Shown here: positions 4,010 to 62,024 of the stretch, in pieces | How positions within the stretch are numbered: position 1 is the stretch's first letter | How the letters are laid out: every line of letters begins with the position of its first letter | Origin: Escherichia coli | GTDB lineage: Bacteria; Pseudomonadota; Gammaproteobacteria; Enterobacterales; Enterobacteriaceae | Direction: 5' to 3' (one strand) | Assembly (NCBI RefSeq): GCF_003334305.1 | Contig: NZ_QOWS01000009.1 | DNA length: 64,000 nt | The notes under the pieces: generated by a model | The model's input: only the letters and a program-made list of their open reading frames with translations | What the model was told of the DNA's origin: nothing | Databases searched by the model: none | Translations under genes and position numbers: made by a program

Positions 4010-5329
4010 ATGTTGCCGTTTCTGAAAGCGCCTGCCGATGCGCCATTAATGACTGATAAATATGAAATTGATGCCCGCTATCGCTACTGGCGTCGGCATA
4101 TTCTGCTGACCATCTGGCTGGGTTATGCGCTGTTTTACTTCACGCGGAAAAGTTTTAACGCCGCCGTACCAGAAATCCTTGCTAACGGCGTGCTCAGCCG
4201 TAGCGATATCGGCCTGTTAGCGACCCTGTTTTACATTACCTATGGCGTGTCGAAGTTTGTCTCCGGCATTGTCAGCGATCGCTCAAATGCCCGTTATTTT
4301 ATGGGGATAGGGCTTATCGCCACGGGCATTATCAACATTCTGTTTGGCTTCTCGACGTCGCTATGGGCGTTTGCCGTGCTCTGGGTGCTGAACGCCTTTT
4401 TCCAGGGCTGGGGTTCACCGGTGTGTGCGCGTCTGTTAACGGCCTGGTATTCACGTACCGAGCGCGGCGGTTGGTGGGCATTATGGAACACGGCGCATAA
4501 CGTCGGCGGCGCACTCATTCCCATTGTGATGGCAGCGGCTGCACTACATTACGGCTGGCGTGCCGGGATGATGATTGCTGGTTGTATGGCGATCGTCGTG
4601 GGAATTTTTCTCTGCTGGCGGCTGCGCGATCGCCCGCAGGCGTTAGGTTTACCGGCGGTCGGTGAATGGCGACACGACGCGCTGGAGATAGCTCAACAAC
4701 AAGAAGGGGCAGGGCTGACGCGTAAAGAGATCCTCACCAAATATGTGTTGCTGAATCCGTATATCTGGCTGCTTTCGTTTTGCTATGTGCTGGTCTATGT
4801 GGTCCGGGCGGCAATCAACGACTGGGGCAATTTGTATATGTCCGAGACGCTGGGCGTCGATCTGGTCACGGCGAATACGGCAGTGACGATGTTTGAACTG
4901 GGCGGATTTATCGGTGCGCTGGTAGCCGGTTGGGGCTCGGACAAATTGTTTAACGGCAACCGTGGGCCGATGAATTTGATTTTCGCCGCCGGAATTTTGC
5001 TTTCAGTCGGCTCGCTGTGGCTGATGCCATTTGCCAGCTACGTGATGCAGGCAACCTGCTTCTTCACCATTGGTTTTTTTGTCTTTGGCCCGCAGATGTT
5101 AATCGGCATGGCGGCGGCAGAGTGTTCCCACAAAGAGGCGGCAGGGGCGGCGACGGGGTTTGTCGGCTTGTTTGCTTATCTGGGGGCGTCGCTTGCTGGT
5201 TGGCCGCTGGCGAAAGTACTCGATACCTGGCACTGGAGCGGATTTTTTGTGGTTATCTCTATCGCCGCCGGGATTTCCGCACTGCTGTTACTGCCCTTTT
5301 TGAACGCCCAGGCACCGCGCGAAGCGTGA
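4010..5329 (+). CDS. uhpC: MFS membrane sensor UhpC (glucose-6-phosphate receptor)
   Basis: 439 aa from second ATG (MLPFLKAPADAPL...); organophosphate:Pi antiporter family; ORF track gives 4004..5329 from an upstream TTG. Confidence 0.93.
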   Translation: MLPFLKAPADAPLMTDKYEIDARYRYWRRHILLTIWLGYALFYFTRKSFNAAVPEILANGVLSRSDIGLLATLFYITYGVSKFVSGIVSDRSNARYFMGIGLIATGIINILFGFSTSLWAFAVLWVLNAFFQGWGSPVCARLLTAWYSRTERGGWWALWNTAHNVGGALIPIVMAAAALHYGWRAGMMIAGCMAIVVGIFLCWRLRDRPQALGLPAVGEWRHDALEIAQQQEGAGLTRKEILTKYVLLNPYIWLLSFCYVLVYVVRAAINDWGNLYMSETLGVDLVTANTAVTMFELGGFIGALVAGWGSDKLFNGNRGPMNLIFAAGILLSVGSLWLMPFASYVMQATCFFTIGFFVFGPQMLIGMAAAECSHKEAAGAATGFVGLFAYLGASLAGWPLAKVLDTWHWSGFFVVISIAAGISALLLLPFLNAQAPREA

Positions 5330-12639: not shown

Positions 12640-13458
12640 ATGAAACTGACAACACATCATCTACGGACAGGGGCCGCATTATTGCTGGCCGGAATTCTGC
12701 TGGCAGGTTGCGACCAGAGTAGCAGCGATGCAAAACACATTAAAGTTGGCGTTATAAATGGCGCAGAACAAGATGTCGCGGAAGTCGCTAAAAAGGTGGC
12801 AAAAGAGAAATATGGCCTCGATGTTGAACTGGTAGGATTTAGCGGTTCGTTGCTACCGAACGATGCGACAAATCATGGCGAACTTGATGCGAATGTCTTC
12901 CAGCATCGACCCTTTCTTGAACAAGATAATCAGGCGCATGGTTATAAACTGGTAGCGGTGGGAAATACGTTTGTCTTCCCTATGGCGGGTTATTCCAAAA
13001 AAATCAAAACCGTGGCGCAAATAAAAGAAGGCGCGACAGTGGCGATCCCCAACGACCCGACCAACCTTGGTCGCGCACTTTTACTGTTGCAAAAAGAGAA
13101 GCTAATTACTCTGAAAGAGGGAAAAGGGTTATTACCTACCGCGCTGGATATAACCGATAATCCTCGTCATTTGCAGATTATGGAACTCGAGGGGGCGCAG
13201 CTTCCGCGCGTACTGGATGATCCCAAAGTTGATGTAGCGATTATCAGCACCACTTACATTCAGCAGACAGGGCTTTCTCCGGTGCACGACAGCGTATTTA
13301 TTGAAGATAAAAATTCGCCGTATGTGAATATTTTGGTGGCACGGGAAGATAATAAGAATGCAGAAAACGTGAAGGAATTTCTGCAATCTTATCAATCATC
13401 CGAAGTCGCTAAAGCGGCAGAAACCATCTTTAACGGTGGCGCGGTGCCTGGCTGGTAA
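12640..13458 (+). CDS. nlpA: Lipoprotein-28 NlpA (methionine-binding lipoprotein family)
   Basis: 272 aa, lipobox LLAGC after signal peptide. Confidence 0.95.
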   Translation: MKLTTHHLRTGAALLLAGILLAGCDQSSSDAKHIKVGVINGAEQDVAEVAKKVAKEKYGLDVELVGFSGSLLPNDATNHGELDANVFQHRPFLEQDNQAHGYKLVAVGNTFVFPMAGYSKKIKTVAQIKEGATVAIPNDPTNLGRALLLLQKEKLITLKEGKGLLPTALDITDNPRHLQIMELEGAQLPRVLDDPKVDVAIISTTYIQQTGLSPVHDSVFIEDKNSPYVNILVAREDNKNAENVKEFLQSYQSSEVAKAAETIFNGGAVPGW

Positions 13459-13461
13459 TTC

Positions 13462-14385
13462 TCACTCATCCCGCGCCGGACGATTTATTTTTCTGGCGCG
13501 GCGACGGGAATCCATTGAAATCAAAATTACCGATGACAGAATCAGCAGCGTTCCCAGCCAGTCCGGTAATGTGAACGTGATCCCCAGCAACAGCAAAGAG
13601 AGTAGCGCGCTACTTAATGGTTCTGCACAGCTCAAAATGCTGGCTTTTGGACCGCCAATTAATTGTGCTCCTTTCAGGTACAGACTAAATGTCAGGGACG
13701 TACCAATGACGATCAAATAAAAAAACGCCAAAATCAAACTGCCGTTAACGACAAAGTTTGTCCCTTGTCTGGCATAAAAAGGCAACAGAATCAGACCGCC
13801 GATCAGCATACTCCAGCCGACGACAGACAACGTGCCATAGCGGGCAATTAGCGTTGAGGGATAGGTGGTATAGAATGCAGCAGCAAATGCCGAGGCAATG
13901 CCCCAGAACAACGCGGCAGGAGAGATCGATAATGACGTCGGATTACCGTGTGTCACCAATAAAAAAGTCCCGACCAGCGATGTCAAAATAGCGCAGAAAA
14001 CCAGAATGCCCGGGCGCGATTTACGCACCAGTGAGAACCAGGCGACGATAATCGTCGGTGAGAGGAATTGCAGCACCGTTGCCGTGGCTGCGTTCGATTT
14101 TTCGATGGTTAGCAAAAAAGTGAGCTGTACAGTTAGCGCGCCAACCACGGAAAAAATCAGCAGGCTAATGGCATCTTTATGATTGTTAATAATAGAAAAG
14201 ATTTTATCGCCATGAACAAATGACAGCGTCAGTAGAATCAAACCGGCGAATATCAAACGCGTCATAGTCAAAAACTGCGACGACATCTGGCTTTGCTCCA
14301 TGATGTATTGCGCGCAGACCCCTGAACTTCCCCACAACACGGCGGCAATCAGAACGTTCAGCATCCCCTTTCTGGTGGAACCCAT
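13462..14385 (-). CDS. yicL: EamA/DMT family transporter YicL
   Basis: 307 aa, 10-TM DMT-type pattern; convergent with nlpA with a 3-nt gap. Confidence 0.9.
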
Positions 14386-15680: not shown

Positions 15681-16316
15681 TCTTCTGAATCACCGGGCGA
15701 AAAAATATAACTGAGTTACAAATAAGTACCAGTCGAATGAGTATTGTATTAAGAATTTTTGAGTATCGCTGATACAACCAGAAAGCAATGCTAGCGCAAT
15801 ATTATAGGGCCAGCAATTGAGATTATTAGCAAAAGCATGTTAAGAATTAATTACCGAATTTATATATTAATTATAGTAAGGCAATGAGCTATTTTTGATA
15901 GTAAAAATAAAACAAGTTGATTTGATATATTAAATGAACAAATTAATCTTGATGGCAGTCTGATTATTGGTGAAGTTTATAGTCAGTTTTTTTCGCCAGC
16001 GGTTAAAGAAATAGAATAGTCGTATAAAAAAGGGTGTTCTGGGGCGAGTAAAACAACATCTTCACCTTAATGGCGATACAGTTGGCTGAGAGTCAGCAGG
16101 GGGGCAAATCACCTGCAAATAAACACGGCGCATACTGGCGTGAATATCGCGGATGCGTTCGAGGACAGAAGAACCGACAGGCGGATTCTTCAGCCGCTCA
16201 TCGTCCATCACAAAACCTTAGACCAGGTATTCCTGAAGCCGATTGAATATTGAGCAGTAGAAAATATCTGGATTGACAGTATTACAAGGGGTTGGAGAAC
16301 GTCAGGAGAGGCATTT

Positions 16317-16411
16317 TGGCGGAAGATCACAGGAGTCGAACCTGCCCGGGACCGCTGGCGGCCCCAACTGGATTTGAAGTCCAGCCGCCTCACCGGAGAC
16401 GACGATCTTCC
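16317..16411 (-). tRNA. selC: tRNA-Sec (selenocysteine tRNA, UCA anticodon)
   Basis: Reverse complement reads GGAAGATCGTCGTCTCCGGTGAGGCGGCTGGACTTCAAATCCAGTTGGGGCCGCCAGCGGTCCCGGGCAGGTTCGACTCCTGTGATCTTCCGCCA, a 95-nt match to E. coli selC with encoded CCA. Confidence 0.97.
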
Positions 16412-25175: not shown

Positions 25176-26042
25176 ATGAAAAAGCGTCGGAAGGAACCGG
25201 AAACGCTACGTGAACACTGTCGCCATATTTTTGGTGATGAGCCGCCAGTGCTCTGTGTATGGGAAACGGAATTTGATTACGCAGATGCCGAACTCAAGGC
25301 GCTGGCGGCTAAAGAGTGGCAGCAGATCAGCGTATGGGATTTGAGTGCTTACTATGTACTCAATCTCGTTTATAACGAACCGATGCAAATAGATTTGTTT
25401 CGCTATCTGTTTCCGCTCTGCCTGGCGCAATGGCATGAAACCGTTTTAGCTGGCGGTTATGGTGATCACTTCGAAGAATCCTTAATGAAGGCATTGTGTC
25501 GGCCCTATCTCTGGCAGGAGATGATGAATGCTTCCCAACGCCAGCAGGTACGGCAATTTTTACTGGACACCGCGTTGCAGCGTATGGATAACGAGCGTGG
25601 TTTCAATAACGTTCTTTGCTGGCTGGCGGTGTTCAATACTCTGGGTGGGGCCGCGCCGTTAATTCGTTCTCTCTGGTCGCGCTGGTGGGCGCTGGATACG
25701 CCAGGAAAAGCGGTGTGTGCTATTCAGTATGCCGCGCATCTAATTTATCCCATAGAAGCCAATCCGTTATGGTCGCAAGAATGGATAGGCTGGGGGCATC
25801 CATTAGGCCATAAAGATGGCTGGTCCTCTGATAATCGCGCTTTTCTTCGCCAAATGTTAACACCTGAAATGATTGTGGCTGGCGTACAGGCAGCGGCTGA
25901 AATTCTGCGTGGTGAACCGGAAGGCGCAATGGCGGCGCGAATTGCACAGGATGCGTATGAGGCAATGGATATCCTCACTATCCAGATTGAAGATTTACTG
26001 CGTGACTTGTCTTGTGATGAGTCTGGTCATGCGTTGGAGTAA
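25176..26042 (+). CDS. Uncharacterised Trp-rich cytoplasmic protein (hypothetical)
   Basis: 288-aa ORF with ATG 3 nt after gltS stop; no TM helix or signal peptide; 13 Trp; host-like codon usage; 3' end overlaps recG 3' end by 16 nt; no recognisable family. Confidence 0.6.
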   Translation: MKKRRKEPETLREHCRHIFGDEPPVLCVWETEFDYADAELKALAAKEWQQISVWDLSAYYVLNLVYNEPMQIDLFRYLFPLCLAQWHETVLAGGYGDHFEESLMKALCRPYLWQEMMNASQRQQVRQFLLDTALQRMDNERGFNNVLCWLAVFNTLGGAAPLIRSLWSRWWALDTPGKAVCAIQYAAHLIYPIEANPLWSQEWIGWGHPLGHKDGWSSDNRAFLRQMLTPEMIVAGVQAAAEILRGEPEGAMAARIAQDAYEAMDILTIQIEDLLRDLSCDESGHALE

Positions 26043-28108
26043 CGTTCCGTCTCCGGCATCCAGCGTTCTATCAGGGCTTTTGCTTGTTGTGGGTAACGTT
26101 CGTGAATATGTCGCGCCAGGCGCTGAACTTCCGGGATCATCGCCTGATCGCGCAGTAAATCCGCCACTTTAAATTCAGCATTACCCGTCTGACGCGTGCC
26201 TAACAATTCGCCAGGGCCGCGAATCTCCAGATCTTTTTGCGCAATCACAAAACCGTCGTTACTGTCGCGCAGCACTTGCAGGCGAATTTGCGCCGTTTTG
26301 GAGAGCGGCGTTTTGTAGAGCAGCACGCAGTGAGAAGCCACCGCGCCACGACCTACGCGCCCGCGCAGCTGGTGTAACTGCGCTAGACCCAGACGCTCAG
26401 GGTTTTCGATAATCATCAGACTGGCGTTAGGCACATCAACGCCGACTTCAATAACGGTAGTGGCAACCAGCAGTTGTAGCTCACCTTGTTTAAACGACGC
26501 CATCACCGCCTGTTTCTCGGCTGGTTTCATCCGCCCGTGTACCAGGCCAACATTCAATTCTGGTAGCGCCAGTTTCAACTCTTCCCAGGTAGCTTCCGCC
26601 GCCTGCGCTTCCAGTAACTCTGACTCTTCAATCAACGTACAAACCCAGTACGCCTGACGACCTTCAGTCATGCAGGCGTGGCGCACGCGGTCAATGATGT
26701 CGGTACGGCGGGTATCAGGAATAGCGACCGTAGTCACTGGCGTGCGGCCTGGCGGCAGCTCATCTATCACCGAGGTATCGAGATCGGCATACGCCGTCAT
26801 TGCCAGCGTGCGGGGGATCGGCGTGGCGGTCATGATCAACTGATGCGGATGGAAGCCCTGCTGCTGGCCTTTCTCCCACAATGCCAGACGCTGATGCACG
26901 CCAAAACGATGCTGTTCATCGATAATCACCAGCGCCAGACCGTTAAACTGCACCTGTTCCTGGAAGATGGCGTGTGTACCGACAATCATCTGCACCTGAC
27001 CGCTGGCGATGGCTTCCTGCTGTGCCAGTCGCGCTTTACCTTTCTGCTTACCGGCGAGCCAGCCCACTTCGATACCGAGCGGTGCAAACCAGTTGCGGAA
27101 GTTATTGGCGTGCTGCTCGGCGAGTAATTCGGTTGGTGCCATCAGGGCCACCTGTTTGCCGTGGGCAATCGCACGCAGCGCGGCGAGGGCGGCGACCAGT
27201 GTTTTACCGGAACCTACATCGCCCTGCACCAGGCGCATCATTGGAACATCCAGCGCCATATCATGCTCGATCTCCGCCACTACGCGTGCCTGTGCGCCCG
27301 TTGGCTTGAACGGTAAGGCGGCGAGGAGTTTATTTTTCAGCGCGTCATTGGCGCTCAGCGGCTGGGCATGAAAACGCTGTGCTCCGGCACGTAAGGCTAA
27401 CATGCTGAGGTTGTGCGCCAGCAGTTCTTCCAGAATCAGACGACGTTGCGCCGGATGCTGCCCGGTTTCCAGATCGCTAAGCTGTAGCGTCGGCGGCGGG
27501 CGGTGCAAAGTGCGCAACGCTTCCGGTAGCGTCATCATTCCTTGTGACAGTTCCGGCGGCAGGAGTTCTTCAATGGCGCAGGTGTCGAGCAGATCCAGCG
27601 CCTGGTCGGTTAATTTACGCAGCGTGGCCTGCTTTACGCCTTCCGTTGTTGGATAAACCGGCGTGAGCGTTTCCTGTAATTCTGGCGTGCTGAGATCGCC
27701 CTGCACGCGGTATTCCGGGTGGATCATCTCCGCACCATATTTACCGCGCTTTGCTTCGCCATAAGCCAGTACACGGCGGCCCGTCGCCAGGCTATTTTTC
27801 ATTGCCGCGCTGAAATTGAAAAAGCGCATGGTGAGGATGCCGGAACCGTCGCTGATCTGGCAGGTCATCATCCGCCGACCGCCGAAGGAGATATTGCAGT
27901 TCAGCACTTCGCCTTCCACCGTGGCATAAACGCCCGGCAGTAGTTCTCCGATGGGGTAGAGATGGGTGCGATCTTCGTAGCGCAGGGGAAGGTGTAAGAG
28001 TAGATCCTGCACGGTATGCAGGTTGATTTTCGCCAGTTTGTTACTAAGTGCTGCGCCAACGCCCGTTAGGGAACTGAGTGGGACAGCATCTAACAGGCGA
28101 CCTTTCAT
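26027..28108 (-). CDS. recG: ATP-dependent DNA helicase RecG
   Basis: 693 aa from internal ATG (MKGRLLDAVPLSSLTGVG...) of ORF 26027..28141; Walker A GDVGSGKT, DEQH box. Confidence 0.97.
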   Translation of the reverse strand: MKGRLLDAVPLSSLTGVGAALSNKLAKINLHTVQDLLLHLPLRYEDRTHLYPIGELLPGVYATVEGEVLNCNISFGGRRMMTCQISDGSGILTMRFFNFSAAMKNSLATGRRVLAYGEAKRGKYGAEMIHPEYRVQGDLSTPELQETLTPVYPTTEGVKQATLRKLTDQALDLLDTCAIEELLPPELSQGMMTLPEALRTLHRPPPTLQLSDLETGQHPAQRRLILEELLAHNLSMLALRAGAQRFHAQPLSANDALKNKLLAALPFKPTGAQARVVAEIEHDMALDVPMMRLVQGDVGSGKTLVAALAALRAIAHGKQVALMAPTELLAEQHANNFRNWFAPLGIEVGWLAGKQKGKARLAQQEAIASGQVQMIVGTHAIFQEQVQFNGLALVIIDEQHRFGVHQRLALWEKGQQQGFHPHQLIMTATPIPRTLAMTAYADLDTSVIDELPPGRTPVTTVAIPDTRRTDIIDRVRHACMTEGRQAYWVCTLIEESELLEAQAAEATWEELKLALPELNVGLVHGRMKPAEKQAVMASFKQGELQLLVATTVIEVGVDVPNASLMIIENPERLGLAQLHQLRGRVGRGAVASHCVLLYKTPLSKTAQIRLQVLRDSNDGFVIAQKDLEIRGPGELLGTRQTGNAEFKVADLLRDQAMIPEVQRLARHIHERYPQQAKALIERWMPETERYSNA

Positions 28109-32033: not shown

Positions 32034-34444
<2,411 letters not shown>

Positions 34445-45094: not shown

Positions 45095-45144
45095 CAGTGC
45101 GGTATCAGTATTCAGGTAGCTGTTGAGCCTGGGGCGGTAGCGTG
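45095..45144 (+). promoter_or_regulatory. JUMPStart-like element containing the ops site (GGCGGTAGCGTG) in the waaQ leader
   Basis: TCAGGTAGCTGTTGAGCCTGGGGCGGTAGCGTG with ops at 45133..45144, about 50 nt upstream of the waaQ start. Confidence 0.75.
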
Positions 45145-60043: not shown

Positions 60044-61078
60044 ATGATGAACAGCACCAATAAACTTAGTGTTATTATTCCGTTATATAATGCGGGCGAT
60101 GATTTCCGCACTTGTATGGAATCTTTAATTACGCAAACCTGGACTGCTCTGGAAATCATTATTATTAACGATGGTTCAACGGATAATTCTGTTGAAATAG
60201 CAAAGCATTACGCAGAAAACTATCCGCACGTTCGTTTGTTGCATCAGGCGAATGCTGGCGCATCGGTAGCGCGTAATCGTGGGATCGAGGTGGCGACGGG
60301 CAAATATGTCGCTTTTGTCGATGCTGACGATGAGGTCTATCCCACCATGTACGAAACGCTGATGACCATGGCGTTAGAGGATGACCTCGACGTGGCGCAG
60401 TGCAACGCTGACTGGTGTTTTCGTGAAACGGGAGAAACCTGGCAATCCATCCCCAGCGATCGCCTTCGCTCAACCGGCGTATTAACCGGCCCGGACTGGC
60501 TGCGGATGGGGCTTTCTTCGCGCCGTTGGACTCACGTTGTCTGGATGGGGGTTTATCGCCGTGATGTTATTGTTAAAAATAACATTAAATTTATTGCCGG
60601 ATTACATCATCAGGATATTGTCTGGACAACAGAATTCATGTTTAACGCGCTGCGTGCGCGATATACCGAGCAATCATTATATAAATATTATCTGCATAAT
60701 ACGTCAGTGAGTCGGTTGCATAGACAAGGGAATAAAAACCTTAATTATCAACGTCACTATATTAAGATTACCCGCCTGCTGGAGAAATTAAATCGAAATT
60801 ATGCCGACAAAATTACGATTTATCCGGAATTTCATCAGCAAATAACTTACGAAGCATTGCGTGTTTGCCATGCGGTGCGCAAAGAGCCGGATATTCTTAC
60901 CCGCCAACGGATGATTGCCGAGATATTTACTTCCGGTATGTATAAGCGCCTGATTACCAATGTGCGCAGCGTGAAGGTCGGTTACCAGGCGTTACTGTGG
61001 TCTTTCCGCTTATGGCAATGGCGCGACAAAACGCGGTCGCACCATCGCATTACGCGTAGCGCCTTTAATTTGCGCTAG
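60044..61078 (+). CDS. waaH: GT2 glycosyltransferase WaaH (YibD)
   Basis: 344 aa, LSVIIPLYNAGDDF..IIIINDGSTDNS GT2 signature. Confidence 0.9.
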   Translation: MMNSTNKLSVIIPLYNAGDDFRTCMESLITQTWTALEIIIINDGSTDNSVEIAKHYAENYPHVRLLHQANAGASVARNRGIEVATGKYVAFVDADDEVYPTMYETLMTMALEDDLDVAQCNADWCFRETGETWQSIPSDRLRSTGVLTGPDWLRMGLSSRRWTHVVWMGVYRRDVIVKNNIKFIAGLHHQDIVWTTEFMFNALRARYTEQSLYKYYLHNTSVSRLHRQGNKNLNYQRHYIKITRLLEKLNRNYADKITIYPEFHQQITYEALRVCHAVRKEPDILTRQRMIAEIFTSGMYKRLITNVRSVKVGYQALLWSFRLWQWRDKTRSHHRITRSAFNLR

Positions 61079-62024
61079 CGTTAAACTTCGCCGCTTCGGG
61101 CTGTTTGCCCCAGCCTTGCCACTGATGCTGGAAGTAAACGATCAGCGTGCTCTGGCTGATGCTTTCGCTTAATACTTCAAAGAAGCGATTAGCATAAACA
61201 GGTTCTATCGGTTTCTTCGGTTTGCACAGCTTCACGCCACGGAACGGATTACGCGGTGCATCAGGCACAGCGTTTTTCGGCGGTGTAGAAGTATCAACCT
61301 GCGGTTCATTCAGCAAGCTGCTGGCTTTCACCAGCGTAATGTCTGGCGGCAGGTTATAAACCATCTGTTGTAGCACGCGTACCGTTGAAGGGTGAGGATG
61401 CCCAATGGCAATGGTTGAACCGTTGCGACGCGCCAGATCAATTGCGCGATTAAATTGCACACGGATGTCCGCTTCGTTCTGCGAATCGTCGAGGAACACC
61501 TTCCGTTTGATCACCTTCACGCCAGTACCTTGCGCGGCGCGCATCGCCTGGGTATTACCGATGGTTACGCTGTCGAGGAAGTAAAGATTGTAACGCTCCA
61601 GTGCCTGCATCACTTTCTGCATACCAAACAGGTTAGAGGTCATCTTGCTACCCATGTGGTTGTTGATCCCCACGGCATAGGGCACGTTATTGACCGCACT
61701 ACGAATAATGCGCTCAATTTCGTCGCTGCTCATCTCCGGGCGCAGCGTATTTTTCTCCAGCGGCTGTTTACTCAGTGGTGCCATCGGGAGATGAATCAAC
61801 ACTTCGTGCCCGCTGTTATGCGCTTTGGTCGCCATCTCTCTGGCGTGCGGTGAATCGGGTAATACAGCGACGGAGATAGCGGAGGGCATCGCCAGCACCT
61901 GGTTTTCGTTGTGCGGGCGATACCCAAAATCATCAATGACGATGGCAAGTTTGCCAGCAAGTACGGGGGAGGAGAGCGCCAACAGAGCGGCAAATGCAAG
62001 AACGTTACGACGAAATGGAAACAA
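61065..62024 (-). CDS. yibQ: Divergent polysaccharide deacetylase family protein YibQ
   Basis: 319 aa, signal peptide, TTG start; 3' end overlaps waaH 3' end by 14 nt. Confidence 0.88.
   Translation of the reverse strand: MFPFRRNVLAFAALLALSSPVLAGKLAIVIDDFGYRPHNENQVLAMPSAISVAVLPDSPHAREMATKAHNSGHEVLIHLPMAPLSKQPLEKNTLRPEMSSDEIERIIRSAVNNVPYAVGINNHMGSKMTSNLFGMQKVMQALERYNLYFLDSVTIGNTQAMRAAQGTGVKVIKRKVFLDDSQNEADIRVQFNRAIDLARRNGSTIAIGHPHPSTVRVLQQMVYNLPPDITLVKASSLLNEPQVDTSTPPKNAVPDAPRNPFRGVKLCKPKKPIEPVYANRFFEVLSESISQSTLIVYFQHQWQGWGKQPEAAKFNASAN

Follow-up and report, generated by a model that had tools for sequence, protein, structure and literature searches.

In Listeria, the excludon couples neighbouring genes of opposed function through long antisense transcripts. 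Short convergent overlaps, in which two facing prokaryotic genes share a few 3' bases, form another described class (Rogozin et al. 2002, cited via PMC2478687; Huvet and Stumpf 2014, PMC4161906), and according to this literature such overlaps persist between species better than spacers do. They are created by the movement of stop codons, their 4-nt class is the minimal form, and the pattern reported for long overlaps is that they occur 'only in very close species'. For the transcripts of convergent genes, Rho termination inside the neighbouring gene has been documented (Peters et al. 2012; PMC6061677; PMC7815308), and in the 'protective hairpin' model of the resulting 3' tails, mRNAs that Rho has terminated are shortened as far as stem-loops without U-tracts, some of which lie inside downstream coding regions (Dar and Sorek 2018, PMC6061677). 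Bidirectional terminators and collision termination offer a further comparison (Ju et al. 2019, cited via bioRxiv 10.1101/2022.10.23.513370), the bidirectional terminators being intergenic GC-rich hairpins with A- and U-tracts.

We compared these systems with three tail-to-tail junctions, waaH/yibQ, Ybl159/recG and ligB/yicG, in a window of 64,000 nucleotides of Escherichia coli DNA (assembly GCF_003334305.1, contig NZ_QOWS01000009.1). As in the short convergent overlaps, a few 3' bases are shared, stop-codon movement is the source, and the TTAG of ligB/yicG represents the minimal 4-nt form. Nothing essential separates waaH/yibQ from this class, although its 14 nt are kept in unusually many genera (at least seven) and thereby exceed the pattern reported for long overlaps. 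The locus also agrees with Rho termination inside a convergent neighbour, given bicyclomycin-sensitive regions antisense to waaH and ligB, and stem-loops lacking U-tracts near the stops match the protective-hairpin model; it differs in that no C-over-G skew is found downstream of yibQ. Convergent 3' transcript overlap is shared with the bidirectional and collision systems, but no GC-rich hairpin with A- and U-tracts lies between or around the stops here. The likeness to the excludon consists of an inducible waaH whose transcript is necessarily antisense to the last gene of the neighbouring operon, whereas the long antisense RNA, reciprocal expression and opposed functions are features of the excludon itself.

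Taken together, the three junctions are very probably ordinary short tail-to-tail overlaps of real genes that reflect tight packing and drifting stops, with no dedicated device. The overlaps are already known, as they are annotated in RefSeq, two of them also in K-12 MG1655, and the class to which they belong is well described.

Authenticity and frequency of the overlaps

The gene order of the window (ilvB-uhp-adeD ... selC ... gltS-recG-spoT ... ligB-yicG ... waa cluster ... tdh-waaH-yibQ-envC) is that of the E. coli chromosome. At selC, strain H15 has a P4-like island; the window is without an island there. The 14-nt and 16-nt overlaps proposed by the first-pass annotation are borne out by the sequence and by identical RefSeq coordinates, and the stop-codon bases that it took to be shared by ligB and yicG are indeed shared (Table 1). 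NCBI's PGAP places these overlaps identically in genomes that are 100% identical, and K-12 MG1655 has the same 14-nt overlap (yibQ 3788101..3789060, waaH 3789047..3790081) and the same 4-nt overlap (yicG ..3819491, ligB 3819488..). In each pair, coding sequences on opposite strands share 3' bases and each ends at its own in-frame stop. The partners are real genes, waaH, yibQ/sddA, recG, ligB and yicG being annotated or characterised and Ybl159 being backed by homologues, synteny and a structure model, and the overlaps are kept elsewhere: waaH/yibQ across genera, Ybl159/recG in a second lineage and ligB/yicG within E. coli.

Table 1. Positions of the genes, overlaps, hairpins and Rho-dependent regions at the three junctions (positions refer to the window except where K-12 is named; Rho scores from PMC7815308)
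Feature	Position	Strand	Description
waaH (yibD) CDS	60044..61078	+	UDP-glucuronate:LPS(HepIII) glycosyltransferase; stop TAG 61076-61078; in ORF list, RefSeq and K-12 (b3615)
yibQ (sddA) CDS	61065..62024	-	periplasmic peptidoglycan deacetylase; stop TAA, reads TTA at 61065-61067
waaH/yibQ overlap	61065..61078	both	14 nt
Ybl159 CDS (WP_000747336.1)	25176..26042	+	288 aa; stop TAA
recG CDS	26027..28108	-	693 aa annotated; stop TGA 26027-26029
Ybl159/recG overlap	26027..26042	both	16 nt
ligB CDS	32148..33830	+	560 aa annotated; stop TAG 33828-33830
yicG CDS	33827..34444	-	205 aa annotated; stop TAA 33827-33829
ligB/yicG overlap	33827..33830	both	4 nt, TTAG
Putative terminator-like hairpin	33782..33807	- (yicG-sense)	19 nt past yicG stop, inside ligB coding end
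13-bp hairpin	61015..61048	- (yibQ-sense)	17 nt past yibQ stop, inside waaH; no U-tract
Rho region antisense to waaH	K-12 3789384	+	324 nt past yibQ stop; Rho score 5.5, p = 1.8e-15
Rho region antisense to ligB	K-12 3819922	+	431 nt past yicG stop; Rho score 18.3, p = 2.7e-56
Rho region inside waaH	K-12 3790042	-	39 nt past start codon; Rho score 5.8
Rho region past recG	K-12 3827414	+	123 nt past recG stop; Rho score 3.0
Rho region inside recG	K-12 3826980	-	480 nt past gltS stop; Rho score 4.4
Presumed equivalent of K-12 3789384(+)	60741	-	mapped by ungapped collinearity
Presumed equivalent of K-12 3819922(+)	33396	-	mapped by collinearity

That the overlaps are artefacts of frameshifting sequence errors, of mis-called stops or of a spurious ORF beside recG is so improbable as to be negligible. 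No evidence in its favour was found. Published surveys do report that some convergent overlaps, mostly longer than 60 bp, arise from 3'-end errors, and that convergent overlaps are the kind of overlap least affected by annotation error (PMC2478687). Of 5426 complete E. coli genomes, 5393 contain the waaH/yibQ junction region and 5415 that of ligB/yicG, and over both regions the window aligns with K-12 without gaps at about 99% identity, with zero mismatches in or near either overlap. Since the junctions are identical in RefSeq, in K-12 and in more than 5,390 independent genomes, mis-called stops and frameshift errors, the objection raised beforehand by the first-pass annotation, are excluded. 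This is further strengthened by the recurrence of the overlap geometry in other genera and by a Ybl159 family whose members in other taxa share 37-71% identity along the full length, with synteny kept and a confident structure model.

The window contains ten convergent pairs, three of which overlap; the gaps are -16, -14, -4, +3, 36, 38, 40, 44, 52 and 69 nt. The published E. coli counts give 75 convergent overlapping pairs among 663 overlaps (PMC4161906) and about 704 convergent pairs genome-wide (bioRxiv 10.64898/2026.03.23.713779). Against a baseline of about 75/704, the probability of at least three overlaps in ten is 0.08; an enrichment of overlaps in the window was therefore rejected as not significant, and their frequency does not go beyond chance.

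Conserved C-termini and the tails that face them

To follow the waaH/yibQ junction across enterobacteria, YibQ was used to scan one genome per species, and 80 Enterobacteriaceae species were recovered. With a waaH orthologue facing yibQ, the 14-nt overlap is found in 11 species from at least seven enterobacterial genera (Escherichia, Salmonella, Citrobacter, Leclercia, Enterobacter, Silvania and Cedecea), a gap of -4 in five (three Kluyvera, Pseudescherichia vulneris and one Enterobacteriaceae MAG, UBA5654), a gap of +6 in one (Kosakonia cowanii) and gaps of +10 and +14 in the two Superficieibacter species. A gap of 0 is seen in ten species, drawn from Kluyvera and the C. freundii group, whose waaH type is 63-71% identical, and two Pseudocitrobacter species reach +72 and +113 where a REP-like palindrome is inserted at the junction. 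When any convergent neighbour of yibQ is counted, the gap is zero or negative in 41 of about 67 species, the states seen being -14, -4 and 0, and about ten further species lie at 3-14 nt. The neighbour in Klebsiella pneumoniae is another GT2 gene, which stops 5 nt from yibQ, and in species with tdh directly after yibQ a canonical bidirectional hairpin terminator occupies the 39-41-nt gap.

The two partners differ in what is conserved at their ends. YibQ, the final product of the gpmM-envC-yibQ operon, is conserved through QHQWQGW and then has 1-13 unconserved tail residues, whereas the C-terminus of WaaH is conserved (...ARKALNLR); the yibQ stop is spelled by the complement of conserved (L/F)-N codons of WaaH, and the waaH stop sits within codons of the unconserved YibQ tail. 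At the DNA level, the species with the 14-nt overlap have a majority-base fraction of 0.58 where only the yibQ tail is encoded and of 0.85 within the overlap; the waaH-only part has 0.75-0.83. It is thus the coding constraint on WaaH that holds the overlap. YibQ has been characterised under the name SddA as a deacetylase of septal peptidoglycan, and its long C-terminal region is predicted to be disordered (bioRxiv 10.1101/2025.02.18.638797), which suits a tail that can drift in length.

A parallel arrangement was found at the Ybl159/recG junction. The ORF beside recG, which begins 2 nt past the gltS stop and which the first-pass annotation presented as new and uncharacterised, is not new: it is a RefSeq hypothetical protein with the UniProt name Ybl159, although its function is still unassigned. 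The reading of recG as a 704-aa ORF is merely the longest possible one. Ybl159 is present in 1915 of the 5426 complete E. coli genomes (35%), while those without it, K-12 included, have a spacer of 165-168 bp between gltS and recG; the exchanged segment is bounded exactly by the stops of gltS and recG, and no remnant of the ORF was seen when genomes lacking it were aligned. Homologues that cover the full length are found in Salmonella (68-71% identity), in Superficieibacter (63-66%) and in distant taxa down to 37% identity, the order gltS-ORF-recG is kept in Salmonella and in one 47%-identical lineage, and the ORF stays adjacent to recG where gltS is missing. Ybl159 is thus a real gene of a conserved family. 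Its AlphaFold model is all-alpha (pLDDT 88.5, pTM 0.88), with the last block falling to pLDDT 58. Searches of Pfam, NCBIfam, PADLOC and PHROGs gave zero matches to a family or function, the PDB held no significant sequence match and no fold match, and the AFDB matches were uncharacterised relatives (Cupriavidus, Leminorella, Sulfurovum and planctomycetes) and one weak DUF1822. Ybl159 therefore presents as the more interesting by-product of this analysis, being a conserved protein of unassigned function and unmatched fold that is wedged between gltS and recG in only some one in three complete E. coli genomes.

The conserved core of Ybl159 stops at IQIEDLL..L, and the tail beyond is variable. 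In both E. coli and the 55%-identical lineage L095, the tail ends in ...G(H/Q)ALE* and the overlap is 16 nt; the A-L-E residues and the stop are the antisense of the invariant ...R-Y-S-N-A codons of recG, so that the invariant C-terminus of RecG provides the stop of Ybl159. The Salmonella homologue ends 2 nt before recG (+2) and that of lineage L008 ends 1 nt before it (+1), and none of these four junctions (E. coli, L095, Salmonella, L008) has room for a terminator.

These observations point to a simple origin for the overlaps. Within each pair, one partner has a conserved C-terminus (WaaH ...ARKALNLR; RecG ...RYSNA), and the other (YibQ/SddA or Ybl159) an unconserved, disordered tail that reads through the antisense of its partner's last codons until a chance stop is met. 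The protein-coding constraint on the partner then fixes that stop, which explains how the same 14-nt geometry has persisted across genera.

Transcript 3' ends at the junctions

With no spacer between the stops, there can be no intergenic terminator, and to that extent the remark of the first-pass annotation that the waaH/yibQ layout leaves no room for a terminator stands; for ligB/yicG it needs qualification, since a terminator-like hairpin of yicG is embedded in the coding end of ligB. This putative structure has a 9-bp stem with 7 G-C pairs, a dG of about -17 kcal/mol and a U-rich tail (UUCUUGAUUU), and the look-alike is one-directional, lying on the yicG-sense strand only. Because it is a fair intrinsic-terminator look-alike, the termination of yicG may be mixed. 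For five of the six 3' ends, scans and folding found no hairpin followed by a U-tract, and consensus matches were at chance level; intrinsic terminators at the junctions were accordingly rejected, with yicG alone having a credible look-alike. A bidirectional intrinsic terminator (GC-rich hairpin with an A-tract and a U-tract) is absent at waaH/yibQ and at the ORF/recG junction, and a search of Rfam gave no RNA family at any of the three junctions.

Downstream of yibQ, the 13-bp hairpin is stronger on the yibQ-sense strand owing to two G.U pairs, and that strand is the more stable one in 19 of 26 species (Wilcoxon P = 0.002, with species that are not independent). On the opposite strand, the sequence of the 3' arm encodes the conserved W-R-D of WaaH. 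Covariation of the hairpin is absent across 23 species and the hairpin is limited to Escherichia; by pair counting, 61.5% of cells pair versus 59.8% in shuffles, with shifted-register controls similar, and RNAalifold found no consensus structure past the yibQ stop. A conserved RNA structure downstream of yibQ was rejected on the strength of these negative pair counts and of RNAalifold.

The fate of the transcripts was examined by looking up published K-12 DirectRNA-seq data obtained with and without bicyclomycin (Adams et al. 2021, PMC7815308, Supplementary file 2). At junctions identical to those of the window, bicyclomycin read-through shows Rho dependence in K-12 for both the yibQ-sense and the yicG-sense transcripts (Table 1). 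In LB, waaH transcription meets a Rho region soon after its own start codon (PMC7815308). Regions of the same kind lie antisense to mutM, pyrE, yicI, waaC and nlpA, whose convergent partners are 3-69 nt apart, and likewise antisense to gltS and recG, a convergent pair spaced by up to 168 nt in K-12 (PMC7815308). In this region, transcripts thus generally enter the facing gene and are halted there by Rho, with or without an overlap. An antisense stretch of at least 4-16 nt in the complete mRNA is logically unavoidable in all six directions, and the antisense 3' UTRs that the first-pass annotation had predicted are supported for the yibQ and yicG directions by the K-12 Rho regions, so that its interpretation is partly borne out; their attribution to the overlaps does not hold, since non-overlapping pairs of the window have antisense Rho regions too and the overlap of coding sequences is therefore not the cause of the tails. 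In the 500 nt downstream, the C/G ratio is 1.27 for yicG, 1.31 for recG and 1.18 for Ybl159, compared with 1.01 for yibQ, 0.97 for waaH and 0.96 for ligB (background 1.02 +/- 0.18); judged from base composition, the skew fits a rut site for yicG, recG and Ybl159 and not for yibQ, waaH or ligB.

In the mechanism that we favour, transcription of each gene would run into the facing gene and be ended there mainly by Rho, which would act once the ribosomes leave at the stop codon. The K-12 data demonstrate such an ending inside the facing gene for transcripts of yibQ and yicG, and by extension it would apply to the remaining four directions and to the present strain. The RNA may afterwards be shortened by exonucleases as far as the hairpins 17-19 nt past the yibQ and yicG stops, which could thus serve as the trim-back endpoints of Rho-terminated RNA. 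As the same read-through is seen at non-overlapping convergent neighbours, the overlap of coding sequences adds no special mechanism.

Alternatively, the transcripts could be terminated mainly by the hairpins in the partner coding sequences (33782..33807 for yicG and 61015..61048 for yibQ) or by head-on collision, with Rho as a back-up. The strong stem-loops 17-19 nt past the yicG and yibQ stops and the U-rich tail of the former point in this direction, and collision-driven termination is known to require a hairpin pause site (bioRxiv 10.1101/2022.10.23.513370). Such a scheme is nevertheless quite unlikely, because the bicyclomycin-sensitive read-through in K-12 extends hundreds of nt beyond both hairpins and the PMC7815308 tables contain no Term-seq 3' end near these stops or at either hairpin. 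Moreover, the yibQ hairpin is unconserved and has no U-tract, and the 3' ends of Ybl159, recG and ligB are without hairpin candidates. The weak expression of waaH and ligB under standard conditions suggests that collisions should be rare.

Regulatory coupling and consequences for strain engineering

At the waaH/yibQ junction, the PhoB induction of waaH and the importance of SddA dosage relative to EnvC make a regulatory coupling between the two genes conceivable, through transcriptional interference such as the first-pass annotation envisaged. Without a spacer, the junction could work as an excludon-like module in which PhoB-induced waaH transcription would lower yibQ (sddA) expression, either because polymerases collide or because antisense RNA leads to cleavage by RNase III, so that the SddA:EnvC ratio would shift. 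In line with this, waaH rises 46- to 80-fold on low phosphate or on pst deletion (bioRxiv 10.1101/536201), and an excess of SddA over EnvC leads to cell chaining (bioRxiv 10.1101/2025.02.18.638797), which means that the ratio of the two proteins matters. Likewise, no terminator separates waaH from yibQ, the gap beside a convergent glycosyltransferase gene is zero or negative in most enterobacteria even where the glycosyltransferase is a different one, and where tdh comes directly after yibQ a canonical bidirectional terminator is present instead.

Even so, we regard such a module as unlikely. Antisense read-through is the same at non-overlapping neighbours, untranslated waaH read-through is expected to be stopped by Rho, no covariation is seen in the hairpin of the overlap region, and a gap that varies among -14, -4, 0, +6, +10 and +14, and +72/+113 after REP insertion, resembles drift. 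Furthermore, among the papers searched, none names both waaH and yibQ. That the gap is zero or negative in most enterobacteria might be a product of selection and not of neutral packing. More specifically, the missing spacer and terminator beside yibQ might itself be selected because induced waaH transcription would lower expression of the last gene of gpmM-envC-sddA, a proposal that seems slightly more doubtful still; if it were true, the SddA:EnvC ratio, and hence septal peptidoglycan cleavage, would be retuned during phosphate starvation.

With ordinary overlaps of tightly packed genes as the preferred explanation, the findings carry little weight as a discovery, given that the reference annotation already contains the overlaps and that earlier work has described the class well, together with its effects on transcription, and their value is mainly practical. 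The three junctions are safe from the objection of sequencing error. Any deletion or tagging at the 3' end of waaH, yibQ/sddA, ligB, yicG or recG changes the last codons and the 3' tail of the partner gene, and caution is therefore advised for knock-outs and C-terminal fusions at these overlapping genes.

Transcript ends at the overlapping junctions

The arms of the hairpin that follows yibQ are the antisense of the WaaH codons S-H-H-R and Q-W-R-D, and two G.U pairs give the structure an advantage of about 6 kcal/mol when it forms on the yibQ-sense strand. In this form the hairpin is restricted to E. coli and E. albertii; covariation was absent across 23 species. On the waaH side, a Rho termination region has been mapped in K-12 grown in LB at position 3790042, merely 39 nt inside the gene (PMC7815308), which suggests that transcription of the PhoB-dependent waaH is ended prematurely when the gene is uninduced.

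The hairpin that resembles an intrinsic terminator for yicG combines a 9-bp stem with a U-rich tail, and its opposite strand encodes the LigB residues LGSWLAAQ. Despite this look-alike, strong Rho-dependent read-through extends 431 nt past the yicG stop in K-12 (PMC7815308). The window also holds a fourth near-zero tail-to-tail junction, nlpA/yicL, which the first-pass annotation did not list; a Rho termination region lies antisense to nlpA in K-12 (PMC7815308).

Coordinates of features in the window
Feature	Position	Strand	Remark
nlpA/yicL gap	13459..13461		3 nt; nlpA (+) ends at 13458, yicL (-) at 13462
rhuM pseudogene fragment	16077..16238 and 16317..16411	-	adjoins tRNA-Sec (selC)
Ybl159 CDS	25176..26042	+	WP_000747336.1; conserved, uncharacterised protein
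Intrinsic-terminator look-alike for yicG	33782..33807	-	entirely within the ligB coding end
JUMPstart element	45106..45144	+	Rfam, 55 bits
Rho termination region (equivalent of K-12 3790042)	about 60083	+	39 nt into waaH
13-bp hairpin after yibQ	61015..61048	-	17 nt past the yibQ stop

Variable content between yibQ and tdh

Across the Enterobacteriaceae regions downstream of yibQ (L010-L089), the content of the slot between yibQ and tdh differs (for example, L051 1845..1885, L085 3428..3466 and L077 3401..4189). It may contain an E. coli-type waaH, a second waaH type that is 63-71% identical, a different GT2 gene separated from yibQ by 5 nt (Klebsiella), or one or two same-strand genes. Where the slot is empty, the 39-41-nt gap is occupied by a canonical bidirectional hairpin terminator.

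Ybl159 and other features of the window

The ORF between gltS and recG, initially described as new, is already known as Ybl159. Its coding sequence starts 2 nt downstream of the gltS stop. Among 5426 complete E. coli genomes, 1915 carry the gene; those without it have instead a 165-168-bp spacer, bounded exactly by the gltS and recG stops. Synteny is also kept in other enterobacteria, Salmonella among them. AlphaFold predicts an all-alpha protein with confidence (pLDDT 88.5), for which no fold match was found in the PDB and no family in Pfam, NCBIfam, PADLOC or PHROG. Its AFDB relatives are uncharacterised throughout, with a single weak match to DUF1822. In Superficieibacter electus (L007), the plus-strand homologue ends at 4849, and a putative minus-strand gene of 127 aa (4803..5186) lies between it and recG, the two 3' ends overlapping by 47 nt (4803..4849).

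The selC island site is empty in the window strain, and strain H15, elsewhere identical in the region, carries a P4-like satellite island there. The JUMPstart element occupies its expected location, upstream of the waaQ operon.
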